A stretch of 64,000 nt of DNA from Ignavibacteria bacterium (GTDB lineage: Bacteria; Bacteroidota; Ignavibacteria; Kapaibacteriales; UBA2268), in the NCBI GenBank assembly GCA_016844745.1, contig JAERMQ010000013.1, positions 72,530-136,529 on the forward strand, read 5' to 3'. Below are positions 403-61,497 of the stretch, piece after piece. Under the pieces are notes generated by a model, which saw only the letters and a program-made list of their open reading frames with translations, did not search any database and was not told the DNA's origin. Position 1 is the first letter of the stretch, and the number at the start of each line of letters is the position of its first letter. The position numbers and the translations under genes are program-made.

Positions 403-417
403 TCCATAAATCATTTG

Positions 418-778
418 TGGAGATGGCGGGAGTCGAACCCGCGTCCGAAGCGCTTCTTTCTGGGCATCTACATGTTTAGCCGGTTTATCATTTTAGTAGT
501 TTCGCTTACCAAACGGCAGGTGCGAATCTCCGAGCTCCCTGTTTTCTCACCTGCAACCCGGGAACGATGCGGCAAGCCAGCCCGACTCTTGTTTGACACC
601 CCCGAAAATACCATCAGGCGAGCTTTTCGGTCGATGTGGCTACCTTTTTTTAATTAGGCTGCCATTGCATAGCTATTGTTAGCATTTTTTGTTTGCCAGT
701 TGTATTTACGTGCTCCACCAGCATAGCACGACATGCAGCCTTCGACATCATTCACCCCGTCGAAGCCATTTCATCCCC
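418..778 (-). ncRNA. ssrA: Transfer-messenger RNA (tmRNA, SsrA). CCA is not encoded. The tag-peptide reading frame ends ...ANNSYAMAA*.
   Basis: The minus-strand 5' end GGGGAUGAAAUGGCUUCGACGGGG and 3' end CUAAACAUGUAG...UUCGGACGCGGGUUCGACUCCCGCCAUCUCCA closely match canonical tmRNA termini (E. coli GGGGCUGAUUCUGGAUUCGACGGG ... CUAAGCAUGUAG...GGACGCGGGUUCAACUCCCGCCAGCUCCACCA). The acceptor stem GGGGAUG/CAUCUCC pairs. An internal ORF ending GCU AAC AAU AGC UAU GCA AUG GCA GCC UAA matches the ANDENYALAA-type tag. The 80-aa '+' ORF at 415..657 is therefore spurious. Confidence 0.9.
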
Positions 779-6543: not shown

Positions 6544-7122
6544 TTATCTTTTACGAAAAATTATCTTTTCTTCTACCTGTTTGAACTCAATATCAAATTC
6601 ATCAAAAACAACCTCCCTGCCGATTATCATATCATCAATTTCTTCATCCTGAATCCATGCAAAACGATTTTTGATTCTATAACCATCGATTTCAATTTCA
6701 TTCTCCCTCATAAGAAAATTAATTTTACTACCAAAACCTTCGGCAAAACCCATTATTTCATGCTCATCCCTTTTGAATCCAAGTTCTTCACCGAAATTAT
6801 AGTTAATTATTGAAATATCAGCTCCACTATCAATCAACATTCTTTCTTGTTTAATATTCCCATCAGGTAAAATAAAATCTACAGGATAAATTGGCTTCCA
6901 TTCATGTTTTGAAATATTTTTTATTTTAAATGTTAGAATACGGTATGCATCATATTGTTTTGGAACTTTAAAAGTAGAAAATGTCAAATTCTTTTGCATC
7001 ATTTTCTCATCAATTTCATTGTATGAATCAGCGTATTCAACAATTTTTTCATCTACAATTGCTATTACTTTTCCCCAATATTTAGAATTGTGGAAAATTT
7101 CTCTTTGCCAATCATCTTTCAT
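6544..7122 (-). CDS. Fusion protein: N-terminal small domain (resembles DUF5678 by eye, unverified) + retropepsin-like (clan AA) aspartic protease domain. Paralogue of 47539..48129.
   Basis: DSGAD (D-S/T-G-A) aspartic protease motif (LIDSGADISI) and a C-terminal IIGREVVFD flap/dimerisation-like region. ~50% identical over its full length to the protein at 47539..48129. Confidence 0.55.
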   Translation of the reverse strand: MKDDWQREIFHNSKYWGKVIAIVDEKIVEYADSYNEIDEKMMQKNLTFSTFKVPKQYDAYRILTFKIKNISKHEWKPIYPVDFILPDGNIKQERMLIDSGADISIINYNFGEELGFKRDEHEIMGFAEGFGSKINFLMRENEIEIDGYRIKNRFAWIQDEEIDDMIIGREVVFDEFDIEFKQVEEKIIFRKR

Positions 7123-7814: not shown

Positions 7815-10800
7815 TCATCTTACTACAGCAAATTTCCTGCGTTCATACTCAACTGTGCTGCCGTCTGCTTTGGTTTCGCGAACATAAAATAAATAAATAC
7901 CCGGGTCGATTAGATTGCCGTTTCTATTATGCAAATCCCAATCGACACCGCCATTACCGTCAATCTCTTTCAAGCGAGCAATTAATTCACCCTGAATTGT
8001 AATGACCACAACTTCACATTTTGAGGGTATTTGTGCAAAAGTTAAATGATTTGCATCTCCTAATTTAATAGGATTAGGATAGGCAAATGCATCATCTCCA
8101 TTCGGTGAAGTAAATAAAAAAGATAGAGAATTGCCCGCTCCTGTGGTCATCAGATGTTCCGAATTAGATTTTACATTTTTGACAGTTAAAGTATATGTTT
8201 TACCAAGAGCAGCAATTAACTCACTCGGTTCCAATTCAATTGATACTTGAGCAGGATTGCTTTGCTTTTGATTTACTTTGATGATTTTACCATAAGGCGA
8301 AATCATATAATTACTAATTTGTTCGGCAGTCTGCTGCTCAGTTGGTTCGGAAAATTCGACTAATAATTGAGTTCTGGAAATTACTTCGAGGCTTTTCAGA
8401 TAAAGGAATATTTCTTTTTGTTGTTTACTTAATTCCAGTGGTAAATAGTTTTCTTTTGTAGGCATACGCCACATATCCCTGAACGATTTACATCGAAGGA
8501 TATATTGACCTTCTGTTATAAAATCCGGTAAGGTAACAATTAAACTCGAATCGTTACCAAAGACAACACTTTTAGCTATTGTAAGGAATTCTTTTTTTAC
8601 ATCCAATAATTCAAATAAAGCAGGCTCGAGAGTTTTATTACCGAGCTTACCTGTGTATTTGACCAACAGACGATTACCATTTTGAAATTCTGCCGATTGT
8701 GCAAATAACGGATTATGTGTATAAATTTTAACAATATTTGTATCCAATAATGAAAATTGACTGTAGAAGTCAGTCATGTTACTATTATATGAACGTATTA
8801 CAAAAGAATAGAATTTATTTTTTCCTAAATTTTCAATGTTGATTGTATTGGAGGTAGTCTGCCCAACCGGGTCTGCAAATACGGATTTACCTTCGAACCG
8901 CAGCGAATCAATTTCGTATCCTTCTGCATCAGGTGAAGGATACCATTGAAAGAAAGCAGTCGAATCGCTCGTTGCCCAGCCATCGAATGATGTAGGTGCC
9001 GATGGTCCCTGGAATTGTGCATTAAATTCATAGAACACTGTCTCATTGCCGGTATTGAAGCCTATTTCATTCACTCCGTTGTTATTGAAATCATAAATTA
9101 CCGCGCTATTCGAAAATGCATTATTATTCCAGTAAAGTGGTTTCATATTCTGGTTTTTTTTATCCCATTTCAAAATATACAAATTCGGAAAAGGCATAAG
9201 CACTATCTCATCACCCGGTTCTTTATCCAAATTCCCTGCAGACACACCATTTCGGTAATCAATACCGCTCCGAACTCCGTAAACATAATCTGTCCAAATT
9301 GATTTATATGAATTTGTTCCAATCTTCTGAAAAATTCTATATTTCCATATAATTACTCCGTTATCATTTTCATTTGGAAGAAGACTACTATCAATGGAGC
9401 CAATAAGTATTTCAGGAATACCGTTACCATCAATATCAACGGTAGAAATATAAAAATTCTCATCAGAGTTGCCGCTTGAATCAATAAATTCAAGATTCAA
9501 AGCGCCCTTCGAAAATTCATAAAACATAATATCTCCACTCCGGTTTCCAAAACACAATTCAATATTTCCATCACCGTCGAAATCACCAATAGCAAGTCCC
9601 GGTAGTGTGCCGATATGCTTCCTTTCTCTGTTTGAATCTAATGCCATTGTCATTAGTTCATAACGATTGTTCATAAAAGTATAAATCAAATATGATGTGT
9701 CGCTGGATGCAATCAGTTCTGGATTACCGTTTCGGTCGAAGTCATACATTCCGGCAGCCCAGAAATTATGATATACTGTATCGGAAAAAATTTTGTTAGA
9801 AAAAGGATTTCCCGATTGGATTGATGCCTGAAAAAGTACTGATTTGCCTGAAGATTTTGCAAATACTTCCATAATTCCGTCACCGTTGGAATCGCCCATG
9901 CCAACCGGTATCCAAAGATTTGGAGTAGAATCCCTTTGAATGAATTTATTATCCTTGAATTGATATATTTTTGTGGGTCCCCAAAGTGCTGAAGCCATCT
10001 CATTAACAGCAATGCAAGGATAGCCGTCGTGATAAAAATCCGATACTTTATTTAGAAGATTCTCAGGTGGCAGGGAATAACCCTGCTGTATGAATTTATC
10101 CGAGGGCATTCCTTCCTGTGGAAGAGTGAAATTGAATTTGTTAATTACGGAATCACAACCTGTGCGAACAGCTACAGCCTCGGCTTCGTAAACGATTCCG
10201 GGCTGAAGGTCGTATGCTGTAATGGAATGAAACCTGCCGCTGGTTTCATATTCGCTTATTTCTTTAAATTCGGAATTGGAATTTAAAGGACGGAATCTTA
10301 CCGAAAATAGGCATTGACTCGAGGTTTGCGCCGCTGCCAGCAGAATTCTTTTACCGTTAAATATTGGATAAAGAATAATCAGTGAATCTATTTTTATTCT
10401 CGTCTTTTCAGAAGCAATCTCAATATATTTGCGAAATTCGATTGTATGAAAATTCTTCAAATTGACGATTACTCTTATAGTATAAACGCTGTCGGAATAG
10501 TTATCAACAGGGATTTCCGCTAATTTACCATCTATGATTTGCGAGTTTGTTTTAATATTCAATGTATCCCAGGGTTTAAGATTAAAGTATTGTTTAATTG
10601 TATCGGGTAAATCCCTTTTCGGGACATATACCGGGTCGATTCCTTTGCCGATAAGAACAAGATAATTATTGAATAAAGGAGTTGCTATCGAGCCGGTTAC
10701 AGGAATGGTTGTTTGATTTTTCCTGTTGAAAACCTGATTATTTTTTGGCGTTGAAATGTATAGGTGAGTTCCTCCAATAATATTTAAGGCTGCTTCGGCA

Positions 10801-12413
10801 TTGAGGATACCGGCTCCGGCTTCAATATTCCAGCCTCCATCACCGAAACCGGTTGCGCTTGCTTCCAGTATCCCTTTTATGTCCTCAGGAGAAGCTAATG
10901 GATTAAGCTGACGTATCATTGCTGAAACTGCAGAAATATGTGGAGCAGCTAATGAAGTGCCTGCCGTTTCTTTGTATGCTCCTCCCATAGCGGTTGTTTT
11001 GATTTCTGAACCGGGAGCAAGTAATGCAAGCCGTGAATTGAAATTGCTGAATGATGCACGTTGATTTTTAATCGTTGAAGCGCCAACTCCAATAACTTCA
11101 TCATAATCGGATGGATAATGCGGTTTGCTTGCGCCGTCGTTGCCGGAAGAACCAATAATTACGCAACCGGATGCATAAGCAAATTTAACTGCTTCATGCA
11201 AAATCGGGGAATCCGAATATTCACCAAAACTACAGTTCAATATTTTAATTCCGTTTAATGCAGCATAAATTATTGCCGATGCTATATCACTCGACTGTCC
11301 GCCGCCAACTGCATCGAGGGCACGAAGTGTGACTATCTTAGCATCGAAAGCTATACCCGTTATTCCAATACCATTATTATTTTGGGCTGCAATAACTCCC
11401 GAAACAATAGTTCCGTGTCCATGATTATCAGTTGGAACAGCATCCCTCTGCCTGTCATCACCAACATTTGCAATCGACTCATCGACGAAATCATAACCAA
11501 TAACATCGTCAGAATATCCATTTCCGTCATCATCTTTTCCGTTGAGGTCGCCGGTTATCCCTTTCAATGTATCAGTAGATGTCCAAGGTTCGAATGTACC
11601 GTTTTGATTCAAATCTTCTTTAGGATTAATCCATAGGCTTTTTTTCAAATCGGGATGGTCGTATTCTATACCCGTATCTATTACTCCAACTAAAACATCT
11701 TTACCGGTGGAAAGTAGCCAGGCTTTATCTGCACCTATGGCTTTGATAGCCCATTGGTCTTTGTAATAAGTGTCATTGGGAGTTACTGATGTAGTATCAA
11801 TATGATAAATTACATTCTTATCAATTCGAATAATATCAGGATTGCTTCTCAATTTTTCCCATGCAGCAGGTATGGAAGCCTCATCGGTGAAATTCAAAAC
11901 AAAATACTTTCTTAATTCATTATAATCTTTGTTTTGTTCACTGGATAGTAGGGAATTACCGTTTTTGTCAGAATTAATCTTGGGAAAAATTTGCTTAAAC
12001 TTTGAATTTTTTAATCCAAGATGAATGAGAACATTGCCGATACTCGATGCTGAACGTAATTTTATAATAATAGAATTATTTCCGCTTTTACAGAATAGGT
12101 TATTTGATGAAAATAAAATTACAATTGATGAAAATAAAACTATAAATAACAGAATAGATGTCCTACATCTGCCAGATGTAGGACATCTTCGTTCCTTCAA
12201 TTGATAGATGTCATTAACAGCAATACGAAGTATTGTATAGAATCTATACAACGCATGAATACTGGATTCTTCACTTCGTTCAGAATGACAATCCTGTAAA
12301 TTTGAAAAATTTCCATGTGTATTTATACAAATTGGAAAGTGGATGGAACGGACATTTTTCATGGATATGCTTACAAACTTTCTACATAATTCAAATATAT
12401 AAAAAGCAATCAA
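7815..12413 (-). CDS. Very large secreted subtilisin-like (S8) serine peptidase with FG-GAP/VCBS-type repeats and a C-terminal T9SS/FlgD-Ig-like sorting domain. The 5' end is uncertain.
   Basis: S8 catalytic triad blocks: VIDTGIEYDHPDL (Asp), HGHGTIVSGVIAA (His), GTSLAAPHISAVSAMI (Ser). Multiple DxDGDG repeat motifs (GDFDGDGNIE, DIDGNGIPE). The C-terminal LTFAQIP...IQGELI...IYLFYV segment resembles a T9SS CTD. The listed N-terminus translates through two REP-like palindromes (12157-12187, 12265-12293) before the hydrophobic signal-like segment (ILLFIVLFSSIVILF). No in-frame ATG lies near that segment, so the true start may be a non-ATG codon around 12170 or the long leader may be real. Confidence 0.75.
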   Translation of the reverse strand: MIAFYIFELCRKFVSISMKNVRSIHFPICINTHGNFSNLQDCHSERSEESSIHALYRFYTILRIAVNDIYQLKERRCPTSGRCRTSILLFIVLFSSIVILFSSNNLFCKSGNNSIIIKLRSASSIGNVLIHLGLKNSKFKQIFPKINSDKNGNSLLSSEQNKDYNELRKYFVLNFTDEASIPAAWEKLRSNPDIIRIDKNVIYHIDTTSVTPNDTYYKDQWAIKAIGADKAWLLSTGKDVLVGVIDTGIEYDHPDLKKSLWINPKEDLNQNGTFEPWTSTDTLKGITGDLNGKDDDGNGYSDDVIGYDFVDESIANVGDDRQRDAVPTDNHGHGTIVSGVIAAQNNNGIGITGIAFDAKIVTLRALDAVGGGQSSDIASAIIYAALNGIKILNCSFGEYSDSPILHEAVKFAYASGCVIIGSSGNDGASKPHYPSDYDEVIGVGASTIKNQRASFSNFNSRLALLAPGSEIKTTAMGGAYKETAGTSLAAPHISAVSAMIRQLNPLASPEDIKGILEASATGFGDGGWNIEAGAGILNAEAALNIIGGTHLYISTPKNNQVFNRKNQTTIPVTGSIATPLFNNYLVLIGKGIDPVYVPKRDLPDTIKQYFNLKPWDTLNIKTNSQIIDGKLAEIPVDNYSDSVYTIRVIVNLKNFHTIEFRKYIEIASEKTRIKIDSLIILYPIFNGKRILLAAAQTSSQCLFSVRFRPLNSNSEFKEISEYETSGRFHSITAYDLQPGIVYEAEAVAVRTGCDSVINKFNFTLPQEGMPSDKFIQQGYSLPPENLLNKVSDFYHDGYPCIAVNEMASALWGPTKIYQFKDNKFIQRDSTPNLWIPVGMGDSNGDGIMEVFAKSSGKSVLFQASIQSGNPFSNKIFSDTVYHNFWAAGMYDFDRNGNPELIASSDTSYLIYTFMNNRYELMTMALDSNRERKHIGTLPGLAIGDFDGDGNIELCFGNRSGDIMFYEFSKGALNLEFIDSSGNSDENFYISTVDIDGNGIPEILIGSIDSSLLPNENDNGVIIWKYRIFQKIGTNSYKSIWTDYVYGVRSGIDYRNGVSAGNLDKEPGDEIVLMPFPNLYILKWDKKNQNMKPLYWNNNAFSNSAVIYDFNNNGVNEIGFNTGNETVFYEFNAQFQGPSAPTSFDGWATSDSTAFFQWYPSPDAEGYEIDSLRFEGKSVFADPVGQTTSNTINIENLGKNKFYSFVIRSYNSNMTDFYSQFSLLDTNIVKIYTHNPLFAQSAEFQNGNRLLVKYTGKLGNKTLEPALFELLDVKKEFLTIAKSVVFGNDSSLIVTLPDFITEGQYILRCKSFRDMWRMPTKENYLPLELSKQQKEIFLYLKSLEVISRTQLLVEFSEPTEQQTAEQISNYMISPYGKIIKVNQKQSNPAQVSIELEPSELIAALGKTYTLTVKNVKSNSEHLMTTGAGNSLSFLFTSPNGDDAFAYPNPIKLGDANHLTFAQIPSKCEVVVITIQGELIARLKEIDGNGGVDWDLHNRNGNLIDPGIYLFYVRETKADGSTVEYERRKFAVVR

Positions 12414-13396
12414 CGTTCATTAAAAATTCTATTCAGTGCATCGATTGCTTTCTTTACTATGCTTTTATCTACAAGATTTGACGAAATCAATTCCGGCATA
12501 TTGTATAATTTATAAGCAGAATCAAAATCCTTCATGTCCAAATATGCTGCCGCCTGAATGAATAATTTTAATCCTTCGTTATCGGAATTAGAGCATTTGA
12601 AATTTAGTAGAGCAAGAACAGCACGGGAATCTCCCTTTTTCAATTTGATTTGGGAAAGTCTTATTGCGGCTTTTTCTCTTTGTTCGACGGAAAGCTGCTG
12701 GGATTGATAAATTGCTGAGAATAATTCTTCGGCACGTGGAAAATTATTCATTGAAAATTCCGTTTCGCCCAAATGATACTTCAGCCACACATCACTTTGA
12801 TTTTGGCTTAATTCCTGTTCTAACAATTCCTTATTTCGGCTTTTTTTGGATTCGGAAGTATTCAAATACCCGTAATGGTGGATTAAGATATCGGATTCAG
12901 CTATTTGTAATCCGTTTCCGGTGATTGTTTCGGCAATTTGTTCGTGGATAGAGCCTTCATAGCGAATTAGCGGATGACGGCGGAATATTCGCGTATATCG
13001 GTGGGTTGACTTTTGTGAAATATCATTCTCATTTAAGAAATTATCAATTATAACGCTGATACCACCAATATCATTATTTAGAAATAAACCGGAATTTCTT
13101 TCAAGCGATTTCGAATCAAGTTCTTCGTCTGTATCGAGCGATATAATCCAATCTGTTCGCATTAGCGAAAGAGCATAGTTACGGGCTTCGGCGAAATTAT
13201 TATTCCACTTTAAAAAAAATACATCAGCACCCAGGAGTGAGGCAATATTCGGGGAATTATCAATAGAGCCGGTATCCACAACTACTATCTGATTGCAATA
13301 CGGTTTTAAAGATTCGATTGCCCGTCTGATAGTTGTCGAGGAATCACGGGAAATGAACGATGCTCCCAGCCGTTCTTTATAATTTGGCATATTCAT
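12410..13396 (-). CDS. Family 2 glycosyltransferase with C-terminal TPR-like repeats
   Basis: GT2 N-terminal motif (IVVVDTGSIDNS...) and DxD (LDTDEEL). The C-terminal half is helical repeats. Confidence 0.6.
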   Translation of the reverse strand: MNMPNYKERLGASFISRDSSTTIRRAIESLKPYCNQIVVVDTGSIDNSPNIASLLGADVFFLKWNNNFAEARNYALSLMRTDWIISLDTDEELDSKSLERNSGLFLNNDIGGISVIIDNFLNENDISQKSTHRYTRIFRRHPLIRYEGSIHEQIAETITGNGLQIAESDILIHHYGYLNTSESKKSRNKELLEQELSQNQSDVWLKYHLGETEFSMNNFPRAEELFSAIYQSQQLSVEQREKAAIRLSQIKLKKGDSRAVLALLNFKCSNSDNEGLKLFIQAAAYLDMKDFDSAYKLYNMPELISSNLVDKSIVKKAIDALNRIFNER

Positions 13397-16321: not shown

Positions 16322-16402
16322 ACTGTCATTCTGAGCGAAGCGAAGAATCTATCTTGTTGATTTTAAAGAAGACTGGATTCTTCGCTTCGCTTCAGAATGA
16401 CA
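16322..16402. repeat. Hairpin element, family A (arms tgtcattctgagcgaagcgaagaatc / gattcttcgcttcgcttcagaatgaca)
   Basis: ~26-bp inverted arms separated by ~24 bp. Related copies at 39299-39372 and 42442-42521; half-copies at 12265-12293 and ~46447-46466. Confidence 0.8.
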
Positions 16403-20890: not shown

Positions 20891-21763
20891 ATGACCGGAA
20901 AAGTAGCAATGACACTTCAGCTTAATCAAGAAAAGGTAGCACAGACGCCCCCGTCTGTGCATAAACCAATTAAAGAAGAGGTATCACAAGTACCTCCGTC
21001 AGTGGATAATCTCATCCAAGAAAAGGTAGCACAGACGCCCCCGACTGTACATAATCCGATTAAAGAAGAGGTATCACAAGTACCTCCGTCAGTGGATAAT
21101 CTCATGCAAGAAAAAGTAGCACAGACGCCCCCGTCTGTACAGCATGAAAATGAACCAAAAAACTCAATGTCTTTAAATAATCTAATTCAAAACAAAGAGG
21201 CACAGACGGGGGCGTCTGTGCTACCAAGTGCAGATAATACTTCATCATTTCAACCAATAATAGATTTTACTTTTCATCAAAGAAACCTCCCACACTGGCA
21301 AAATCCAGGAAGTATATATTTTATTACATTTAGAACCTATAAAAATTTAATTCTTGATGATATTTCAAAACAAATAATTTATGAAAATATCATTTATTAT
21401 GGTAAACTTTTTTATAAGTTATTGTCATTTGTAATAATGCCGGACCATATTCATATTATTCTTCAACCCAATGAAATAGAAAAAAATATTTACGTAAACC
21501 TTTCCAAAATTATGCAAGCGATTAAAGGATATGCAGCCAAACAAATAATTAAGCATCTATCTCAACAGACAGAACAGACCTCACAAATTCAAGAGATTGC
21601 ACAGACGGGGGCGTCTGTGCTACTAAATTCCAATTTTCAAATAAAGAATGAGAATACATCGCAGAAAATTGCTTTCTTATTTTATCCATTTTCATATCTT
21701 TTTAAAATCGTTTTAATACTGTTCCTTTTGCGCATATTATATTTGCAAAGCTGTGTTCTTTGA
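20891..21763 (+). CDS. REP-associated tyrosine transposase (RAYT / IS200-like Y1 HuH transposase). The N-terminal ~90 aa as listed are translated from a REP tandem array and may not all be coding.
   Basis: Core FHQRNLPHW...IYFITFRT...MPDHIHIIL (HuH) ...KGYAAKQI (catalytic Tyr helix) matches the Y1_Tnp/RAYT family. The first clear in-frame Met before the core is MSLNNL (~21163). A 91-bp unit is repeated 3x in 20915-21150. Confidence 0.8.
   Translation: MTGKVAMTLQLNQEKVAQTPPSVHKPIKEEVSQVPPSVDNLIQEKVAQTPPTVHNPIKEEVSQVPPSVDNLMQEKVAQTPPSVQHENEPKNSMSLNNLIQNKEAQTGASVLPSADNTSSFQPIIDFTFHQRNLPHWQNPGSIYFITFRTYKNLILDDISKQIIYENIIYYGKLFYKLLSFVIMPDHIHIILQPNEIEKNIYVNLSKIMQAIKGYAAKQIIKHLSQQTEQTSQIQEIAQTGASVLLNSNFQIKNENTSQKIAFLFYPFSYLFKIVLILFLLRILYLQSCVL
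20939..21140. repeat. Array of three 22-bp palindromic REP copies (gcacagacgcccccgtctgtgc, 'CCCCC' orientation) embedded in ~91-bp tandem repeat units
   Basis: Copies at 20939-20960, 21029-21050 and 21119-21140, each within a repeated QEKVAQTPPSV...IKEEVSQVPPSVDNL unit. Confidence 0.85.
21200..21221. repeat. REP copy in inverted orientation (gcacagacgggggcgtctgtgc)
   Basis: Same palindrome with the central GGGGG instead of CCCCC. Lies just upstream of the RAYT catalytic core. Confidence 0.85.
21599..21620. repeat. REP copy (GGGGG orientation) within the 3' end of the RAYT ORF
   Basis: Exact 22-bp match to the copy at 21200. Confidence 0.85.
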
Positions 21764-21867
21764 AAAAGCCGGGATGAAATCCTTCGTGTCCATTGAGAGT
21801 GCCTTTGCGCCCTTTGTGTTAAAATCAGTTCATAAAGTTGAAAGTGAAGGGCGAACTGATAAACACT

Positions 21868-21990
21868 TTCAGAAAGTTTCCCTACTTTCGGAAAGTTGAA
21901 CAAAAAAAATGCAATAAATCCTATTCAATAGTATTCATTCGTACCTTATGAAAAAAACTTTCTGAAAGTAGGGAAACTTTCCGAAAGTAA
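21868..21990. repeat. 33-bp inverted repeat pair (ctttcagaaagtttccctactttcggaaagtt / aactttctgaaagtagggaaactttccgaaagt) separated by ~55 bp
   Basis: Near-perfect reverse-complementary arms between the RAYT gene and the 3' end of the convergent activase gene. Probably a large hairpin element or bidirectional terminator. Confidence 0.6.
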
Positions 21991-22129
21991 AAAATCGAAA
22001 ATACGTAGTAAAAAGTAGTAAAAAGCAGTAATTTGAAAATGTATCAATTTGAAAATGAATTGAAGAAAAGATGTCCAACATCTTCCAGATGTTGGACATC
22101 TAAAATCTTTGGAAAATTTAGAGTTAATT

Positions 22130-25100
22130 CTATTCCTTCTGCACTTTTTCGCTTTTAAAGAAATTGAATTTCTTATCGTCATGCTTGGCTTTGCCGTTTT
22201 TCTGTTTGGCTAATTTCATAAGGCGTGCAGCGCGTTCTGCCTGCAAAGTGAATGTCTCTAACCTTGCCTCGATAATCTGGGGATAAACATTTCCATCCGA
22301 TTCGATTGTTAAGAACGGAATGCTCAGGTTGCCGTTGAAGACTTCTGAAATTTCATAATCAGGGTCGTTTAATCTTTTTGCAAGAATCTTATGCTCTACC
22401 TTCATTTCCGGGATTGCAACTGCCTCTGTGAAACGGGTTGGCATACATCCGAAAGGTCCAAGATTAATTATACCGCAATATTCCTCGAATCCTTCATGAA
22501 GTGCAGTACCGAGAGTTAAACCGGGTTCGCCCTTGATTTCGAGAGGTATAATATGCTTGGAATGGCTGAGCAGCGCCTCGATATTAATTTTAGTAAAATA
22601 ACCTGATTTAGCTAACGCCTTCTTGATTTTCTTTTCGGCATTGTGCATATACATGCTTCGGATATAGCGCTCGGAGCGGTTTTTGATGGAATTGTCAGCT
22701 TCGATTAATCCAATGCTGATTAGATAATCAATATAATATATCCATTCGGTGATATGAGCGATTTTCAGGACAAATCCCTTTTTAGCAAAGACACGATTCA
22801 AATACTTATGTGCAAAATTATCACGGCGGACGAATATTTCACCGGTAAGGGCAACATACTTAGCTTCTTCAATCGGCACTCTGACAGGGACTTCTGCTCG
22901 AATTACTTCAGAGAAATCCTCCAGATAATCGTAAATTTTTTCTGGTTTCAAAGTGTATAATGCTACAACCTTTTTGAATTCCCTGTCAAATACTTCCTCT
23001 CCTTTGATAGGGTCAAGGGAATAAGCTAAAATTGCAGAACGTATATCATCCAAAACATCTGCTGCCATCAAAGCAAGAATGCCGTATTTCGAGAAATTAT
23101 CTCCGATTCCGGCATAACCGTTATCCGTAGAAAGGAAGAACTGGGCGACATTATCTAATCTTTTACGCTTGATAATATCATTCAATAAAACCGGATATTG
23201 ACCAATCCTGCAGCTACCGGAACTTGATATATTGAAGAATGCTATATAATCTTTGCCATTCCATTTGTTTTCAATATAATTCACTAATCCTCCGGCAAGC
23301 AGAATAAGCGGCAGGCATTCTTTTCCGGTAAGATAGGCTCTGCCGTAATGCAGAATTTCCGAATCGCTGTCGGGAAGTTTCTCGGCATTATATCCGATAG
23401 CCCGGAATGCAGCGGCGAAGAACTCGGAAGTTAAATCACCCATAGGAGGAATCAGGATTTTGACTCGTGGGTCTTTCAAGGGAAGTATTTCACCATTCGA
23501 TGTATGGAAGTAACCGCTAACATCATCGAAAGTCACCTGCGACATAACATAACCAGTATAATCAGGGTCATGGATGTTTTCGCTGACCTTGCGATAATTT
23601 TTAATAATATCCAATGCTGCATCTATACGGGTATTTATACCTGCATCGGCAGTATGTCCGTCTAATTCGAGTGTAAGTGAAGGCTTGGTTCCCATGATAT
23701 TCCTGAATGTAGTGATAATCATGGAATCCGGTCCGCATGAGAAATTCGATATATATGTTGCGAATAACTGAGGATGGCGCTTAATTATCTTAGCGATTTT
23801 AAGAATCTTCTTACCTCCCTCCCAAAACATATCTACATCAACTATTTCTTTGCGGTAATCGAACATGTCATAGGGGAGAACATAAATACCACGCGAAGCA
23901 AACTTGCGGGGAATTCCTTTGTTTGCATGTTCGGTAAATGAGTTGTAAGGACGACCGACAATCACCATAGCATAGTCTTCTGGATGTTCTTCCAGATATT
24001 TAAGGAATTCAGCTCCGGTATCGAACATTTCCGTTTCATAAGCGCTCTGCATATCGACGGCAAACCGGTAAGCTTCGCGAGCCTTGTTAACGTCTTCGAT
24101 TCCGAGCTTTTGTGCAATTTCAATAAATTTATCTTCTTCGGCATCGAACCCTGACGCAAAATTGAGTGGTGGTGCGAACAACCGGTCGGCGATTTTGTAT
24201 TCTTTATATGCCTGCTGCAGGAAGAAGGGTTCAGTGATTACGAATACACAAGTAGCATTGTAATCTATATGATAATGTTCTTCATCTTCGACATACATTT
24301 CCAATAAGTTTGGTACGAAAAGATAATCCGGATTCTTGTTTAGTAGGTTCTGGAATAATCCGAGGGATAACTGCCCAGGGAAACAGAAGGATGTCATTTC
24401 ACGTTCCAATCCTTCATCCTCGACGGCATCCGGCATAACGATATTGAATCCAAGCCTGGTAAAGAAGTTATGATAAAGTGGATAGACTGTATGAGTATGG
24501 AAAGAAGCATTGATACCGATTGATTTGGCATCTTCGGGTAATTCAACCATGGGCGCATATTTCTCGAAGCAAAGCCGGCGCCTTAGCTCGACGAAATCGA
24601 AGTGAACAGGGTCAATTTTACTTCTGCTTCGCAGGTTATAATATTTATTACAGGCTCCACCGAAAGTGTAATTTTTACCTTGAACTTCGATTAGGTTTAT
24701 TGAACAGGAACGGTCGCATTTTTCTTTGCCGCCAACGCAGATGAAAGGTTTCTTGTATCTTACGTCGCGTCCTGCAAGTTCAGCCAAGTCATATAGCTGT
24801 TCTTCCATGAACCCAAGTTTGATTTTCTCTTTAACTTCCAATGCTACACCGAAGGCTCCCATTAATCCGGGTTCGGGTGGAACGATAATTTCCTTACCTG
24901 TGAGGGCTGCCATTGCAATCGGAATTGCCTTATTATAACATACTCCGCCTTGCATGAATATTTTCTTGCCAACTGGGCGGTTGCCTTTTACGCGGTTAAC
25001 ATAGTTAAGACAGATAGAATAAACCAGACCGGCAATGATATCTTCTTTAGAAAGATTTTCCTGAAGCGCTGTTTTAATATCAGAACTGATAAATGCGGCA

Positions 25101-26503
25101 CATTGGTCGGAGAAATTCGGCGGAGTTGAGCCACGCATTGCAATTTGCTCGATTTCCTTTACTTTAATTCCTAAGGATTCCCAAGCGGATTCCTCTATGA
25201 ATGAACCTGTGCCGGCTGAGCAGGCTTCGTTCATAGCATAATCAGCAGGTACTTTATTTACGATATATGTGTATTTGGCATCCTGTCCGCCGATTTCGAA
25301 AATAGTATCAACTTCGCTATCGAAATAAACTGCTGCTGTAGCATGAGCTATAATTTCGTTTATTACACCATCGGTCAGGGCATGTAATCCGGCAATTTGC
25401 CTGCCGGAGCCTGTTGTGCCAATTCCTATTATCTGTATAATTTCAGGGATTTGAACTAAAAGCTCACTATAACATTTTCTTGAAGCAGCAATAGGGTCGC
25501 CATTAGTATATAGATAGATTGACCCTAATATCTCATTATCGGATTCCCGGATGATAACCGCTTTTGTTGTTGTTGAACCAACATCCAAGCCTAAAATGCA
25601 TCTGTCTCCATCTCGGGCTTTACTTTGTTTCACATTTTTAAAAGTAACTTTTTCCTGGAATTCTCTCAATGGCTTATGGAAGGGAAAAGAGCTATCTCTG
25701 AATGTAAATAATTCTTCGAAAGATTTGAATTGCTGTACATTATTTTTCAGGCAAAAAAGAGCGGCTCCGAATGCTTCGAAATAGGTTGCCTGTTCAGGAA
25801 TTTCAATCGAAGGATTACTCTTTCTTACAAATTCCATAACTGCCTTATTCTGTGTAACTCCACCAAGAAGTAAAAATTTACCCTCCCGGGTTTTTTTCAG
25901 CAGTTCTTCAACTTTTTCACTAATCATTTGAGCTAAGCCTGAAGTAACCTCTCCTTTTGGAATTCCTTTATTGAGTGCGTGAGTGCAATCGGATTTGCAG
26001 AATACCGAGCATCGTCCGGATACTTTATACGGGTCTGCAGAAACCGATATATCTACCGCTTCATCAACATTGAGATTCATTCTTTTTATTTGCTGTAAAA
26101 AGAATTCCCCTGTTCCTGATGCGCATTGATTTTTTGTTATAACTTCTGTAATTTTGCCTGAATAGTCCAAAGTATAAACCATAAAGGTTTCACCACCAAG
26201 GGTTGCCACGGCAGAAAATTCCCTGCCGGACTCATCGATATATTCCAACCCATGTTCAATTGCTTCCGGTTCGGATATTGTAGTAAGATTTATCAGGTTC
26301 CTGAATTTTCTTCCTGTTACCACAACCGGATTCATTTCCGGATTGAATTCTCTTAATTGGTCAAGAAATACTCCTTTCGGATTGCCGTTATGAACAACCG
26401 AAAGGATATCCGAAACATTAGCTTTACCGTTGCCATTCGATTCTACTCTTACGAATGATATGGTAGAAGCCCCCATACATACGCCAACTGCTATATTTGC
26501 CAT
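22130..26503 (-). CDS. CoA-substrate-specific enzyme activase fusion protein (two BadF/BadG/BcrA/BcrD-type ATPase domains + 2-hydroxyacyl-CoA dehydratase HgdB-like domain)
   Basis: 1457 aa. Two ASKHA ATPase modules (GLDVGSTTTKAVI..., IGIGTTGSGR) with cysteine-cluster regions, and a C-terminal DUF2229/HgdB-like region. Matches the architecture of the ~1400-aa activase-related fusion proteins in anaerobes. Confidence 0.7.
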   Translation of the reverse strand: MANIAVGVCMGASTISFVRVESNGNGKANVSDILSVVHNGNPKGVFLDQLREFNPEMNPVVVTGRKFRNLINLTTISEPEAIEHGLEYIDESGREFSAVATLGGETFMVYTLDYSGKITEVITKNQCASGTGEFFLQQIKRMNLNVDEAVDISVSADPYKVSGRCSVFCKSDCTHALNKGIPKGEVTSGLAQMISEKVEELLKKTREGKFLLLGGVTQNKAVMEFVRKSNPSIEIPEQATYFEAFGAALFCLKNNVQQFKSFEELFTFRDSSFPFHKPLREFQEKVTFKNVKQSKARDGDRCILGLDVGSTTTKAVIIRESDNEILGSIYLYTNGDPIAASRKCYSELLVQIPEIIQIIGIGTTGSGRQIAGLHALTDGVINEIIAHATAAVYFDSEVDTIFEIGGQDAKYTYIVNKVPADYAMNEACSAGTGSFIEESAWESLGIKVKEIEQIAMRGSTPPNFSDQCAAFISSDIKTALQENLSKEDIIAGLVYSICLNYVNRVKGNRPVGKKIFMQGGVCYNKAIPIAMAALTGKEIIVPPEPGLMGAFGVALEVKEKIKLGFMEEQLYDLAELAGRDVRYKKPFICVGGKEKCDRSCSINLIEVQGKNYTFGGACNKYYNLRSRSKIDPVHFDFVELRRRLCFEKYAPMVELPEDAKSIGINASFHTHTVYPLYHNFFTRLGFNIVMPDAVEDEGLEREMTSFCFPGQLSLGLFQNLLNKNPDYLFVPNLLEMYVEDEEHYHIDYNATCVFVITEPFFLQQAYKEYKIADRLFAPPLNFASGFDAEEDKFIEIAQKLGIEDVNKAREAYRFAVDMQSAYETEMFDTGAEFLKYLEEHPEDYAMVIVGRPYNSFTEHANKGIPRKFASRGIYVLPYDMFDYRKEIVDVDMFWEGGKKILKIAKIIKRHPQLFATYISNFSCGPDSMIITTFRNIMGTKPSLTLELDGHTADAGINTRIDAALDIIKNYRKVSENIHDPDYTGYVMSQVTFDDVSGYFHTSNGEILPLKDPRVKILIPPMGDLTSEFFAAAFRAIGYNAEKLPDSDSEILHYGRAYLTGKECLPLILLAGGLVNYIENKWNGKDYIAFFNISSSGSCRIGQYPVLLNDIIKRKRLDNVAQFFLSTDNGYAGIGDNFSKYGILALMAADVLDDIRSAILAYSLDPIKGEEVFDREFKKVVALYTLKPEKIYDYLEDFSEVIRAEVPVRVPIEEAKYVALTGEIFVRRDNFAHKYLNRVFAKKGFVLKIAHITEWIYYIDYLISIGLIEADNSIKNRSERYIRSMYMHNAEKKIKKALAKSGYFTKINIEALLSHSKHIIPLEIKGEPGLTLGTALHEGFEEYCGIINLGPFGCMPTRFTEAVAIPEMKVEHKILAKRLNDPDYEISEVFNGNLSIPFLTIESDGNVYPQIIEARLETFTLQAERAARLMKLAKQKNGKAKHDDKKFNFFKSEKVQKE

Positions 26504-29649: not shown

Positions 29650-29775
29650 TTTCTTTTACTTTGTGCCCTTTGTGCTAACCCTTTGAGTCCTTTGTGGTAA
29701 AAATAACATCAAAATAAAGGATGAAAATTTTAACACAAAGAACACTAAGGAAATGCACAAAGGGCACAAAGTATG
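29650..29775. repeat. ~125-bp inverted-repeat element (arms actttgtgccctttgtgc...aaaaat / attttaacacaaag...gcacaaagggcacaaagt)
   Basis: Terminal inverted repeats of ~17 bp plus internal complementary segments. A related fragment (cctttgcgccctttgtgttaaaat) lies at 21795-21830. MITE-like. Confidence 0.6.
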
Positions 29776-32025: not shown

Positions 32026-32520
32026 TTATTCATTATCTATAGAAGAATTCTTGCGAAGATAAATTAGCAGTTTATACCTAAATATTATTATATAAATCAC
32101 AAAAGGCAGGTAGATATTGAATAATAGGAAATATAATATACCAATTCCATAAATAAAAAGAAAAGAAAAAATCACCATTCCGCAATAAATGTAAAGTGTC
32201 AGAAGCAGGGACTGTATTCGGATGGAGCTAATCTCTACCAATGAGGCTTCGTTGTTTTGCTCGACTTTTTCTTTGGAAAGAGCAATAAAAAACAAACCTG
32301 CAAATGAGAAGATTCCGGCTAATTCTTCAGTGATATTATTATCAATTATAGCAAAAAATTTAGTCTCGAAATACTTCGAATACACTGCGAATACATGGAT
32401 ATCGAGTATTTTCAGTTTATAATCGAAAAAAAGCCTTATAACAGCTAAAATTATCCCGGGAATCAATAAGCAATAACCAACTATTTTCCATTTGTATGAG
32501 AGCAAATCAAGTTTAGGCAT
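32026..32520 (-). CDS. Hypothetical integral membrane protein
   Basis: 164 aa with ~4 hydrophobic helices. No motifs recognised. Confidence 0.35.
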   Translation of the reverse strand: MPKLDLLSYKWKIVGYCLLIPGIILAVIRLFFDYKLKILDIHVFAVYSKYFETKFFAIIDNNITEELAGIFSFAGLFFIALSKEKVEQNNEASLVEISSIRIQSLLLTLYIYCGMVIFSFLFIYGIGILYFLLFNIYLPFVIYIIIFRYKLLIYLRKNSSIDNE

Positions 32521-32549
32521 GATTGGATTTGTTTACATTTTTAAATATA

Positions 32550-32580
32550 GATGTCCTACATCTGCCAGATTTAGGACATC
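32550..32580. repeat. REP-like palindrome, family B (gatgtcctacatctgccagatttaggacatc)
   Basis: 31-bp near-perfect palindrome. Copies at 12157-12187 (perfect) and 22070-22100 (variant gatgtccaacatcttccagatgttggacatc). Confidence 0.8.
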
Positions 32581-32589
32581 TCCAGTCAA

Positions 32590-33258
32590 TTAATTTTTCG
32601 AAAATATATACATACTACCGTTCGAGCCGTCCTCCATTACTAACTGAACGAATACCAATCCATATTTATGGTTGGTTTTGTAAATCACTTTTTTCACTCC
32701 CGGCAGGCTCGTATTGCGCTCGGTAGTTATTGTTTTGAGTAATAACATACCATAAGGAAATTCATCGGTTGAAGACTTGGCTGTGATTTCCCTTGTGATT
32801 GTTTTACCGTCGGAGCGCGTCAATACATACTTATCACCGACACTACAATTATATTTAGCAATGGTATGCGGTTTGTCGTCGGGATTAAGGAAATCCTGAA
32901 TGCCTTCCGAAGTGACTTTGAATTTAATGTCGGAATTGATATTCCCTGCACTATCCTTATACTTTGCAGGGAAGAGGTCGATGATATCTTTCAAATCGGT
33001 ACTAAGTTTTGCAGTATTGACAATGGCTTTAACTGTTACTATACCATTATCATTATTGGTTACCTTTAACGAACCGTCAAAATTAACAGCCCGACCTGCA
33101 ACTGTTATTGACGGAGTAAAAACATTACCTACTTTGGCAAGCGCTACATCGGTACTTCCACCCAAAGTGTTTGGGTCTTCATTCGAGGAATCAACACTAC
33201 ATGAAGCTACAAAAATTATGGAAAAAATAACGAGGAAGAAGTTGTAAATTGCTTTCAT
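32590..33258 (-). CDS. Hypothetical lipoprotein
   Basis: Signal peptide with lipobox (IFVASCS). No other motifs. Start set at MKAIYNFF. Confidence 0.4.
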   Translation of the reverse strand: MKAIYNFFLVIFSIIFVASCSVDSSNEDPNTLGGSTDVALAKVGNVFTPSITVAGRAVNFDGSLKVTNNDNGIVTVKAIVNTAKLSTDLKDIIDLFPAKYKDSAGNINSDIKFKVTSEGIQDFLNPDDKPHTIAKYNCSVGDKYVLTRSDGKTITREITAKSSTDEFPYGMLLLKTITTERNTSLPGVKKVIYKTNHKYGLVFVQLVMEDGSNGSMYIFSKN

Positions 33259-33360
33259 TTGCGCTCTCTCCAAAGTGAACAAATTTGTTAATTGACAATT
33301 ACAACTTAGTTATTTTTAAGATGAAAAACAAGAAAAAGTGGATTGTAAATTTATTTTAAA

Positions 33361-33425
33361 AGGACAGACAGGGATGTCTGTCCTACCATATTAAAAAAAG
33401 TAGAATAGACATCCTTGTCTGTTCA
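33361..33425. repeat. Two CAGAC-core palindromes (aggacagacagggatgtctgtcct; gaatagacatccttgtctgttc), probable terminator hairpins
   Basis: Located at the 3' end of the DUF4337 gene and followed by A/T-rich sequence. The core resembles the RAYT-associated REP (acagacg...cgtctgt). Confidence 0.55.
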
Positions 33426-39298: not shown

Positions 39299-39372
39299 AA
39301 TGTCATTCTGAACAAAGTGAAGAATCCAGAAGCAGTATTGGGACTGGATTCTTCACTTCGTTACCAATGACA
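39299..39372. repeat. Hairpin element, family A (aatgtcattctgaacaaagtgaagaatcc / ggattcttcacttcgttaccaatgacag)
   Basis: Inverted arms around a 17-bp spacer, between dsbD and hprK. Both are minus-strand genes, so a terminator role is possible. Confidence 0.75.
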
Positions 39373-42346: not shown

Positions 42347-42441
42347 TCATTTCCTTTATATATGGTTAGAAATTCAATATTAATAATATTTCAACTTTGA
42401 GATTCTAAATTAAAAATTGAAATTGTCTCAATAGTCAAGAA

Positions 42442-42521
42442 GAATGTCATTCGTAAGCGAAGTGAAGAATCCAGAAATAGCATTGGGAATGGATTCTTCA
42501 CTTCGCTTACGAATGACATTC
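42442..42521. repeat. Hairpin element, family A (gaatgtcattcgtaagcgaagtgaagaatcc / ggattcttcacttcgcttacgaatgacattc)
   Basis: 31-bp perfect inverted arms separated by an 18-bp loop. Lies 3' of the membrane-protein gene / 5' region of metH. Confidence 0.85.
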
Positions 42522-42596
42522 TTCCATTTTTTAGATTAATAAAACAAAATAATTTTTTTTTATAATAATTCATAACTTATAATTCATAACTCATAA

Positions 42597-47048: not shown

Positions 47049-47489
47049 TTAATACATATCTACAACCCATTTACCATCATTGATTGGATTACCGATAATT
47101 CCCTGACTTTTAGGGTCAACCACCCAGTCCATTGTTTTGAGTACCAAATATCCGATTAAAGCCGGAACATTGTCATCTTTATTTTCCATTACTTGCATTT
47201 GAATAGTCCGCTCTTTTATTGTTATTTTTGCACCATCGAATATCCTAAGTTCAAGGCTGCCATTCCCAGTCTTTACAGGTGTTGATTTCGCAAAACGAAG
47301 ACCAAGTTCCTTAATAACTTTCGGAGGCAGGCAAAGATAGGCAGCACCGGTATCAACCAAAGCATCAATTTCTAAGCTCCGGATTTGATTAGGTTTGATG
47401 TAACCTTTATCAGATAACACAATATCATCATAGTTAGTTATCACTACTTTTTCTGACGTTCTACCCCTTTTATTTTCCCTTAGTTTCAT
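47049..47489 (-). CDS. Stand-alone retropepsin-like (clan AA) aspartic protease
   Basis: DTGAAY active-site motif (ALVDTGAAYLCLP) and C-terminal LIGYLVLKTMDWVVD flap/dimer region. 146 aa. Compare the AF_0612 / Asp_protease_2 families. Confidence 0.6.
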   Translation of the reverse strand: MKLRENKRGRTSEKVVITNYDDIVLSDKGYIKPNQIRSLEIDALVDTGAAYLCLPPKVIKELGLRFAKSTPVKTGNGSLELRIFDGAKITIKERTIQMQVMENKDDNVPALIGYLVLKTMDWVVDPKSQGIIGNPINDGKWVVDMY

Positions 47490-61367: not shown

Positions 61368-61442
61368 TTAAGAGAAACCCCCTAACCCCCTTTGAAAAAG
61401 GGGGAATTTATTATTCCACCTTTTTCAAAGGGGGTTAGGGGG
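61368..61442 (+). terminator. Strong rho-independent terminator / long palindrome after accA
   Basis: aaaccccctaaccccctttgaaaaaggggg ... cctttttcaaagggggttagggggttt forms a ~28-bp stem followed by ttttcttt. Confidence 0.7.
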
Positions 61443-61497
61443 TTTTTCTTTGTATATTGAATTAAATTGACAATTTTATTAACTAAACAAGAAAAAT

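Follow-up and report, generated by a model that had tools for sequence, protein, structure and literature searches.

Rickettsia palindromic elements (RPEs), which are ~150 bp long, are inserted in frame in many genes, with 44 such insertions in one genome (PMC10969869). Other short palindromic repeats, including the REP and BIME elements of enterobacteria and the REPIN/RAYT systems, are mostly extragenic (PMC3116915, PMC3337134), and SPRITE-type repeats are terminator-like (PMC10969869). Here, we analyzed a stretch of 64,000 nucleotides (hereafter, the window) from an Ignavibacteria bacterium, in which a palindromic repeat lies at the 5′ end of an S8 serine protease gene. According to our preferred reading, to which we give a probability of about one half, a mosaic repeat was inserted in frame into the n-region of the signal peptide and is read through from the ATG at 12362. 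The features concerned, in window positions, are as follows.

12410–13396, minus strand: gene for a GT2 glycosyltransferase, upstream of the protease, with its TGA stop at 12412–12410.
7815–12362, minus strand: S8 serine protease gene, S8 domain intact (PF00082, 4e-53, full length).
12360–12362, minus strand: ATG (ATG AAA AAT), the most likely and probable ancestral start, giving MKNVRSIHFP..., 45 nt after the GT2 stop.
12156–12308, minus strand: whole mosaic repeat unit, 153 nt or 51 codons by profile alignment, reading FSNLQDCHSERSEESSIHALYRFYTILRIAVNDIYQLKERRCPTSGRCRTS.
12264–12290, minus strand: 5′ arm of an A-type hairpin (GGATTCTTCACTTCGTTCAGAATGACA; on the minus strand, TGTCATTCTGAACGAAGTGAAGAATCC), encoding CHSERSEES.
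12233–12251, no strand assigned: short palindrome (9+1+9) within the A hairpin loop, TTGTATAGA-T-TCTATACAA.
12209–12231, minus strand: decayed 3′ arm of the A hairpin, ACTTCGT-attgctgtt-AATGACA, identified by alignment to the second arm of A-type hairpins (profile and MAFFT) and by folding.
12189–12208, minus strand: linker of the unit (ATCTATCAATTGAAGGAACGA region), the complement of a decayed T-tract, holding the in-frame TTG 12200–12198.
12198–12200, minus strand: this TTG, the alternative start, giving MKERRCPTSGRCRTS-ILLFIVLF... with an n-region of 15 aa.
12156–12188, no strand assigned: palindrome B, copy B1, AGATGTCCTACATCTG-C-CAGATGTAGGACATCT, perfect over 33 nt (16+1+16).
12111–12155, minus strand: hydrophobic core of the signal peptide, ILLFIVLFSSIVILF, followed by SSNNLFC and KSGNNSIIIKLRSA.

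The longest open reading frame of the protease (7815–12413, minus strand) begins with TTG, encodes 1532 aa and spans all of the palindromic repeats, and its first codon at 12413 overlaps the GT2 stop. An earlier note on this DNA had stated that the frame reads through the palindromes and that the GT2 gene stops at 12410, and both statements were confirmed. The public annotation starts at ATG 12362 and gives 1515 aa. A homologue search returned >1000 homologues of the S8 protease, and its accessory domains include an FG-GAP repeat (PF13517, 43.6 bits) and an fn3 domain (PF00041) that, at 23 bits, lies below the 25-bit cut-off. The last 80 aa of the protein match the PorZ/PorU CTD, a T9SS-type C-terminal domain, and the protease therefore needs a Sec signal.

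We found that the two REP-like palindromes reported by the earlier note in this 5′ end are both present, but that they are not separate: they belong to a single mosaic unit, in which an A hairpin with a decayed second arm is followed by a linker and by palindrome B. Using a profile of 27 units of the CAZOBD01 type, we obtained 43.5 bits for 12156–12308 (nhmmer, E = 2.5e-13), compared with ~33 bits for the palindrome alone, and repeat matches were absent from the flanks at 12309–12420 and 12060–12155. The unit length of 153 nt is taken from this alignment and may be several bases off. By inspection, no convincing target-site duplication, a trait of MITEs, was seen at 12155/12156 or 12308/12309; the exact ends are uncertain because no empty site is available. 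Palindrome B had been given as a perfect 31-bp palindrome at 12157–12187; it is perfect but longer by one base on each side. Similarly, the supposed half-hairpin of family A at 12265–12293 corresponds to the arm at 12264–12290, but it is not truly half, as it has a decayed partner at 12231–12209. The A-type arm had four matches in the 64-kb window and none in shuffles, and the B palindrome had no match in 100 shuffles. B1 forms a 15-bp stem with a 3-nt loop, and the folding energy of its RNA is –24.7 kcal/mol (z = –6.9).

Only one of the six frames of the unit is free of stop codons, and it is in phase with the protease, in which B1 is translated as exactly 11 codons (RCPTSGRCRTS). The remaining two sense frames of 12156–12413 carry 5 and 8 stops. 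In intergenic DNA of the window, stop-free runs of 69–86 codons have a chance of 0.1–3%, an argument that is weakened because the case was picked for its long ORF.

We also compared the unit with its other copies. The earlier note had located the same element at 22070–22100 and 32550–32580; these copies are real, although they are not identical to B1, and they have the following positions.

22069–22101, no strand assigned: palindrome B, copy B2, 28 nt after the stop of the gene 22130–26503 (minus strand), differing by 3 bases, including a stem pair changed from T-A to A-T by compensatory substitution.
32549–32581, no strand assigned: palindrome B, copy B3, with one stem mismatch, 8 nt past the stop of 32590–33282 (minus strand) and 28 nt before the ATG of 32026–32520 (minus strand).

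Full A hairpins are present at 16324–16402, 39301–39372 and 42439–42524, and all other A and B copies within the window are intergenic. The linker AATTGAAG adjoins both B2 (22058–22068) and B3 (32582–32592), and cagTTGAAGGAAaaa adjoins B in copies from the CAZOBD01 MAG. In total, at least 107 copies of palindrome B were found in the window and 88 fetched loci, with two MAGs each contributing dozens of these loci, and related MAGs of ~36% GC display the same mosaic architecture. Its stem is kept complementary while the loop varies: 49 copies carry the A-T variant and 48 the T-A variant, in addition to G-C and G.T forms. An A-type arm lies within ~50 nt of B in 36 of the 97 copies with enough flank, compared with ~2% expected by our own estimate. 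The arrangement of A hairpin, linker and B recurs across several MAGs, a BIME-like mosaic trait, and a further family, C, has its core directly next to B in CAZCLJ01 and, in the window, ~80 nt away from B2.

For 81 of the 107 B copies listed, no open frame of at least 100 codons spans the palindrome, and none of the ~106 other copies examined has a clear in-frame intragenic position; the protease case is therefore a single event rather than a habit of the family. A T-rich tail is present on exactly one side in 82 of 102 copies, compared with a background of 3.3%, and B2 passes a terminator scan in the correct orientation for the gene 22130–26503. These results suggest a mostly intergenic family whose members usually look like one-sided terminators, an activity that is predicted from sequence. 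At the protease, the T-rich side of B1 is on the plus strand, antisense to the gene, and its T-tract has decayed; on the sense strand, hairpin plus tail only just passes the scan. As part of the preferred reading, we consider the family to belong to genomes of the Ignavibacteria and Kapaibacteria type, as a high-copy, mostly intergenic and terminator-like repeat.

No name seems to exist for the family or its mosaic partners. Chance-level matches aside, Rfam returned no family at the gathering score or with E ≤ 10, and a literature search by repeat sequence retrieved only unrelated primer matches. A RAYT-like remnant is located at 21272–21600 (NF047646, 47.7 bits against a cut-off of 80, profile positions 3–100 of 146; PF01797, 27.6 bits). 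Family D palindromes flank it, the region expected to hold the catalytic tyrosine is missing, and B2 is found 306 nt past the stop of the listed RAYT-like ORF. In 533 kb around other B copies, we detected no RAYT homologue by tblastn with the RAYT-like domain of the window and an approximate IS200 TnpA query. The REP head GTAG/GTGG is present in family D of the window (GGTAGCACAGACG...) but is not conserved in B, where GTAG is confined to the stem of the T-A subfamily and the equally common A-T subfamily has GTTG.

We then compared the N-terminus of the protease with those of 25 full-length orthologous proteins (36–50% identity) and 10 metagenome loci. All of the orthologues begin with Met and 2–20 residues, followed by a hydrophobic core and an S(Y/I)I(I/V)K motif; their signal peptide aligns with ILLFIVLF, and homology resumes at this core, from 12155. 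The repeat segment of ~60 residues is absent from all orthologues examined. One of them begins MKNIVSIIIVLILSS, to be compared with MKNVRS|ILLFIVLFSS in this protease. In the MAFFT alignment, the orthologue Met falls on M18 with a gap of ~62 columns opposite the repeat, a placement partly forced by global alignment. A close relative or an allele with an empty site was not found, the best matches having 48–52% identity overall (50% in the metagenome scan; 52% for a protein matched to the N-terminal 218 aa). GT2 and M20 genes are not adjacent to the protease in the ten orthologous loci, and spacer lengths are therefore not comparable.

The idea in the earlier note that REPs were inserted at this site is thus supported, as the segment is a dispersed repeat unit that orthologues lack. 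The note had named an N-terminal extension shared by orthologues as the observation that would speak against its proposal, and at the amino-acid level the alignment showed no such extension, so the proposal stands in this respect. It is accordingly extremely improbable that the 86 additional residues are a genuine conserved N-terminal domain of the protease family, a view for which nothing can be cited but the long open frame and its overlap, through TTGA, with the GT2 stop. This view is contradicted by the alignment, and most of the extension is dispersed repeat DNA. Moreover, the 94-aa leader matched no protein when used as a query, a negative that is weak because the search also missed the protein itself.

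Next, we examined the start codons available to the gene. The in-frame canonical starts are TTG 12413, ATG 12362, TTG 12251 and TTG 12200, and the next one, TTG 11897, is past the signal peptide; ATG, GTG and TTG are all absent in frame between 12155 and 11897. Repeat-encoded residues must therefore be translated if the protease is exported. The earlier note was correct that no in-frame ATG occurs near the hydrophobic stretch, but it missed TTG 12200, which lies 15 codons upstream of ILLFIVLF. Its proposal of a non-ATG start at the stretch itself was not supported. Only ATT 12155, CTG 12152 and ATA 12143 follow the palindrome directly; they occupy exactly the start position of orthologues, two of which (P0005 and P0017) have almost no charged n-region. 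However, codons of the ATT, CTG and ATA type initiate very poorly, the hairpin of –24.7 kcal/mol would cover the whole ribosome-binding region, and the signal peptide would have no n-region. In addition, a canonical start is found 13–53 nt downstream in all five other clean B copies that precede a long ORF. We regard initiation at these codons as very improbable. A leader encoded by the repeat, the other option in the note, is the better alternative, with the single stop-free frame of six and a typical ATG just upstream of the unit.

Such a leader could arise from either of two codons. MK- starts are typical in this genome, as at ATG 12362; initiation there would yield peptides such as NVRSIHFPICINTHGNFSNLQDCHSER. 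The predicted n-region has ~69 residues from ATG 12362 and 15 from TTG 12200, compared with 1–20 in orthologues. Initiation at TTG 12200 is possible as a hybrid of the two readings in the note, a non-ATG start within the repeat linker, but we judge it unlikely on balance. In this case, the repeat would supply both the start and a positively charged n-region, and 12201–12413 would be untranslated and open by chance. TTG 12200 is the closest in-frame canonical start, its 15 residues with a net charge of ~+4 fit the orthologue range, and the palindrome adds exactly 11 codons to them. However, the linker with this TTG and its context is also seen next to B2, B3 and further copies from other MAGs; the codon is therefore not ancestral, and the reading needs loss of the original start. 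It also lacks an SD-like motif, TTG is a weak start codon, and the hairpin begins at +13, inside the footprint of the initiating ribosome. In addition, the frame stays free of stops for another 54 codons, as far as an in-frame ATG AAA, which under this reading would be a coincidence of roughly 1–6%. The codon-usage log-odds were –6.4 bits for the extension and –9.2 bits for the true N-terminal signal-peptide region; the test is thus uninformative, as the scores do not separate the extension from true coding sequence.

Two other candidates were rejected. One was the out-of-frame ATG 12185, preceded by AAGGAA, which gives MSYIWQM and then a stop inside the palindrome. The other was a simple 33-nt insertion just after an ancestral start at TTG 12200; it was dropped because this codon turned out to belong to the repeat linker.

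A further explanation, rather unlikely in our view, is that the insertion removed or displaced the real start, leaving a young pseudogene that is silent or barely expressed, or that the junction arose artificially during assembly of the MAG. No canonical start exists where all orthologues have one, the hairpin and tail in the sense direction were called terminator-like by the scan, and the source is a metagenome-assembled genome. Furthermore, exact look-up of the annotated protein found no identical record, and no near-identical record was found elsewhere. However, the 1446 downstream codons form an intact frame, in which the S8 match is full length and every accessory domain is present. The decayed A part suggests that the copy is not very recent, which argues against an unselected ORF of 4.3 kb, although its decay may have preceded the insertion. 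The stretch of high identity to other copies in the window measures only ~45 nt, probably short for a mis-join with usual assembler k-mers, and even in a chimera the palindrome would still abut ILLFIVLF.

Our preferred reading, insertion with read-through from ATG 12362, can be outlined as follows. A unit of ~153 nt, comprising the A-type hairpin, the linker and the 33-nt palindrome B, would have entered the n-region of the Sec signal peptide in frame, and the ancestral start ATG 12362 (MKNVRS...) would now be separated from the hydrophobic core by ~51–63 repeat-derived residues. Translation would most likely begin at this ATG and pass through both palindromes, with the hairpin melted by elongating ribosomes. 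The hydrophobic segment presumably still directs export, with the Arg-rich stretch encoded by the repeat remaining on the cytoplasmic side. The start codon in use and continued export are both predictions, and export with an n-region of ~69 residues may be poor. The copy seems to persist because it uses the only stop-free frame of six, because its length keeps the downstream frame, and because it lies antisense to the T-tract side that most copies carry.

We also considered a more far-reaching and quite improbable possibility, namely that the mosaic, terminator-like A, B and C palindromes common to Ignavibacteria-, Kapaibacteria- and Chloroherpeton-type MAGs constitute an undescribed mobile repeat system, of which the protease copy has become a working part of the signal peptide (an Arg-rich n-region or even a TTG start) or a translation-dependent switch. 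If the latter were true, the transcript would escape termination or folding only when ribosomes read through the hairpin, and protease output would be tuned accordingly.

The insertion would explain why gene callers assign a leader of 70–86 residues that is absent from all relatives, and it narrows the real start to two codons. It is also a clear case, in a phylum other than the Proteobacteria, of a dispersed palindromic repeat that has survived in a coding region: in its single open frame, in its non-terminating orientation and in the n-region, the one part of a secreted protein where almost any sequence is tolerated. The repeat family and its mosaic partners could serve to mark these poorly known lineages, and the scientific weight of the case is modest.

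The family as a whole resembles the REP and BIME elements of enterobacteria and REPIN/RAYT systems in its short palindromes, high copy number and mostly extragenic location (PMC3116915, PMC3337134). As in BIMEs, palindrome types and conserved linkers form mosaic clusters, and stems are complementary across variants; a RAYT-like gene remnant is found in the same window. However, B has no constant GTAG head, and the remnant, without its catalytic-tyrosine region, is flanked by family D instead. Terminator-like repeats of the SPRITE type (PMC10969869) are comparable in their strong hairpin, with a one-sided T-tract in 80% of B copies and the correct orientation of B2, but the protease copy is antisense with a decayed T-tract, and the terminator role of the copies is a prediction. 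The insertion itself is most similar to RPEs and other intragenic MITE-like repeats (ERIC, BOX): a palindromic unit of ~150 bp lies in a gene, in frame and without stops (PMC10969869), and adds a peptide segment that orthologues lack while the host gene remains intact. The two differ in that RPEs do so repeatedly, whereas here 1 of ~107 copies examined is in frame and the family is otherwise intergenic; they are unrelated in sequence and occur in different phyla, and here a signal peptide rather than a folded domain is split. The protease insertion is thus an annotation-level curiosity, an event of a known kind and not a new system.

The S8 protease matches the full length of the Pfam S8 domain at residues 237-535 (E = 4e-53); it also has an FG-GAP repeat and an fn3 match that falls below threshold. 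Over its final ~80 residues the protein matches the C-terminal domains of PorZ and PorU, two type IX secretion proteins, and so should require a Sec signal peptide. Elsewhere in the window, a tmRNA gene lies at 415-778 (minus; RF00023, 172.6 bits), and retropepsin-like aspartyl protease domains (PF13650/PF13975) occur in three small minus-strand ORFs (6544-7122, 47049-47489 and 47539-48129); in two of these, the first 113 nt at the 5' end (7010-7122 and 48017-48129) are 73% identical.

Features of the protease 5' end and related repeats in the window
12413 to 7815, minus: mechanical ORF of the S8 serine protease, TTG start, 1532 aa
12410-13396, minus: upstream GT2 glycosyltransferase gene; its TGA stop overlaps the TTG at 12413
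12264-12290, minus: A-type arm (pattern match)
12233-12251: third small palindrome, in the loop of the A hairpin
12231-12209, minus: decayed partner arm of the A hairpin
12200, minus: in-frame TTG
12156-12188: palindrome B1, perfect, 33 nt (pattern match; 0 matches in 100 shuffles)
22069-22101: palindrome B2, 3 differences, including a compensatory stem swap
32549-32581: palindrome B3, one stem mismatch
16324-16402, 39301-39372, 42439-42524: full A hairpins

In-frame codon inspection found no ATG, GTG or TTG between 12155 and 11897; therefore, any start that keeps the signal peptide lies upstream of palindrome B, and B is then necessarily translated, as RCPTSGRCRTS. The earlier note had correctly reported the lack of an ATG here, but overlooked the TTG at 12200. 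Translation of B inside a gene is unusual for the family, as in the five other clean copies with a long ORF behind them a canonical start lies 13-53 nt past the palindrome. As RNA, B1 was computed to fold into a 15-bp stem (-24.7 kcal/mol, z = -6.9). A non-canonical start at 12143-12155 is highly improbable, since it would lie directly behind this hairpin and leave no n-region, the signal-peptide stretch before the hydrophobic core.

We compared the N-terminus with those from ten metagenome loci and from 25 full-length homologues, which are 1400-1445 aa long and show 36-43% identity. Each of these N-termini starts with Met, usually has Lys or Arg within 2-20 residues, and goes on to a hydrophobic core followed by the motif S-(Y/I)-I-(I/V)-K; the counterparts in the window protein are the core ILLFIVLFSSIVILF (from 12155) and the motif NSIIIKLRSA. 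MAFFT placed the orthologue Met on M18 (ATG 12362), opened a gap of ~62 columns opposite the repeat and picked up the homology again at ILLFIVLF. The shared extension that the earlier note had asked about was absent from all 25 homologues and all ten loci. The long N-terminus derives from the repeat and is no conserved domain. No close relative was found in the searched collections.

We favor, with a probability of roughly one half, a start at ATG 12362 followed by translation through the repeat. This codon, at which the publicly annotated protein begins (P0001, 1515 aa), lies 45 nt past the GT2 stop in unique DNA just upstream of the ~153-nt mosaic unit (12156-12308), and reads ATG AAA AAT, a typical start in this genome, as about a third of the window genes begin with MK. 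Without the 153-nt unit the N-terminus becomes MKNVRSIHFPICINTHGN-ILLFIVLF..., resembling the orthologues, and a slightly larger deletion yields MKNVRS-ILLFIVLFSS, near that of one orthologue, P0006 (MKNIVSIIIVLILSS). The unit is stop-free in only one of six frames, the one in phase with the protease, and the other two sense frames of 12156-12413 contain 5 and 8 stops. Stop-free runs of 69-86 codons were found at 0.1-3% of positions in the other intergenic DNA of the window; the open-frame argument was given cautious weight, since it was a long ORF that led to this case being chosen. Codon statistics did not discriminate the extension from the signal-peptide coding region. The mosaic unit may have been inserted in frame, surviving only because its frame and orientation were tolerated, and such an insertion accounts for all of the ATG 12362 facts without any deletion. 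A canonical 3' arm of the A hairpin (...CTTCGTTCAGAATGACA), read in phase with the protease, would give CTT CGT TCA GAA TGA, a stop; the window arm (12209-12231, minus) has ATTGCTGTT where TCAG is expected, bringing AAT GAC into frame, so that the frame is open because the arm has decayed.

A start at TTG 12200 is a serious rival, if an unlikely one. It would yield a neat, positively charged n-region of 15 residues; however, this TTG, a weak start codon, is part of the repeat linker and lacks an SD-like motif, and the hairpin begins at +13, inside the footprint of the initiating ribosome. It is also doubtful that the gene is silent or a MAG assembly artefact, as the 1446 codons downstream of the repeat are intact and the stretch common to other copies is short.

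A B-pattern scan of species-representative genomes found at least 88 loci; among the matches listed, dozens each occurred in the MAGs CAZOBD01 and CAZCLJ01, and others in Kapaibacterium and Chloroherpeton MAGs. The mean GC of the listed loci was 36% (window, 35.6%). Among the 108 copies in the matches listed, the variable stem position was A-T in 49, T-A in 48, G.T in 4 and G-C in 1, with only a handful mismatched, and the central 3 nt varied freely; this stem complementarity with a free loop is the pattern of a maintained hairpin. In the same matches, flanks were conserved within genomes, and an A-type arm ending in AATGAC lay within ~50 nt of B in 36 of the 97 copies with enough flank (estimated chance, ~2%), in the recurring order A hairpin, short linker, B. 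A profile of 27 CAZOBD01 units aligned to window positions 12308 down to 12156 (43.5 bits, E = 2.5e-13, versus about 33 bits for B alone), and the flanks 12309-12420 and 12060-12155 gave no repeat matches, either in the window or across 533 kb of loci. The cluster seen earlier as two different REP-like palindromes is real, but its A-type arm and palindrome B are one mosaic unit of a large dispersed repeat family. The supposed family-A half-hairpin has a partner arm, though decayed, and a small palindrome in its loop; B is perfect as described, but 33 nt long rather than 31, and its two other copies are present but not identical.

Among the matches listed, a T-rich tail occurred on exactly one side in 82 of 102 B copies (background, 3.3%), a pattern by which the family looks like a one-sided intrinsic terminator. 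The linker beside B, CAATTGAAGGAACGA at B1, AATTGAAGAAA at B2 and TAATTGACTGG at B3, with a further match to cagTTGAAGGAAaaa in CAZOBD01, is the complement of the family's T-tract. B2 lies 28 nt past the stop of gene 22130-26503 in terminating orientation; B1 lies antisense to the protease, with a decayed T-tract. Palindrome B opens with ATG on both strands (window 12185-12165, minus; CAZOBD01 copies), giving a mini-ORF of 7-10 codons (MSYIWQM* in the window). In CAZOBD01, GGAGGAAAAAG, the complement of the T-tract, precedes this ATG; the resulting SD-plus-ATG look-alike is likely to be a by-product of the terminator-like sequence.

Family C palindromes (core AACTTTCNGAAAGTT) lie at 21865-21897 and 21956-21988, between B2 and a remnant like a REP-associated tyrosine transposase (RAYT), and a similar core directly abuts B in CAZCLJ01 copies (loci L001-L080), so the mosaics are shuffled from no fewer than three types of palindrome. 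In CAZOBD01-type contigs (L006, L077, L082, L025, L079), paired B units lie ~200 nt (197-216 nt) or 460-560 nt apart, and the sequence that follows one unit resembles the one preceding the next A hairpin, suggestive of tandem arrays of the entire mosaic unit. Two more long inverted repeats lie at 29657-29773 and 61370-61450, one with 54-nt arms (80% complementarity) and the other with 38-nt arms (95%; CCCCTAACCCCC...GGGGG); in CAZOBD01 loci, B units have a similar GGGG/CCCC-rich hairpin next to them. The loci from MAGs titled 'uncultured Hyphomicrobiales bacterium' (CAZOBD01, CAZCLJ01, CAZCHH01, CAZIIZ01, CAZEHW01) have about 36% GC, and their repeat family also occurs in Chloroherpeton and Kapaibacterium MAGs and in the Ignavibacteria-annotated window; the Hyphomicrobiales label looks wrong.

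The RAYT-like remnant (ORF 20891-21763, plus, 290 aa; domain at about 21272-21600) matches NF047646 (E = 1.4e-12, 47.7 bits, cut-off 80, profile positions 3-100 of 146) and PF01797 (27.6 bits). It has the HUH motif (HIH) but not the section expected to hold the catalytic Tyr, which was not found in any downstream frame. Family D (20927-21151, 21200-21225, 21598-21623, 33362-33389) looks like a classical REP, with a GTAG head (GGTAGCACAGACGCCCCCGTCTGTGC). Its copies are arrayed in tandem with a 45-nt period just upstream of the domain, and it occurs once before the domain and once within it; the listed ORF translates family D as AQTPPSV or AQTGASV.

In architecture, the repeat family is similar to REP/BIME mosaics and to terminator-like dispersed repeats; no Rfam family matched the repeats. 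Unlike RAYT-mobilised REPs, B has no constant GTAG head. No RAYT was found in the 533 kb of loci around other B copies, and the remnant in the window is flanked by family D, not B; B is at most a candidate member of the RAYT-mobilised REPs. Intragenic MITE-like repeats, among them the Rickettsia palindromic elements, are ~150-bp palindromic units that lie in frame and add a peptide that orthologues lack (PMC10969869). The likeness to these repeats is one of function, in that the in-frame repeat in the protease adds a peptide absent from orthologues; however, this is a single event, in a family that is otherwise intergenic. The repeat inside the protease start adds one more case to a type of event that is already known, and is of modest interest.
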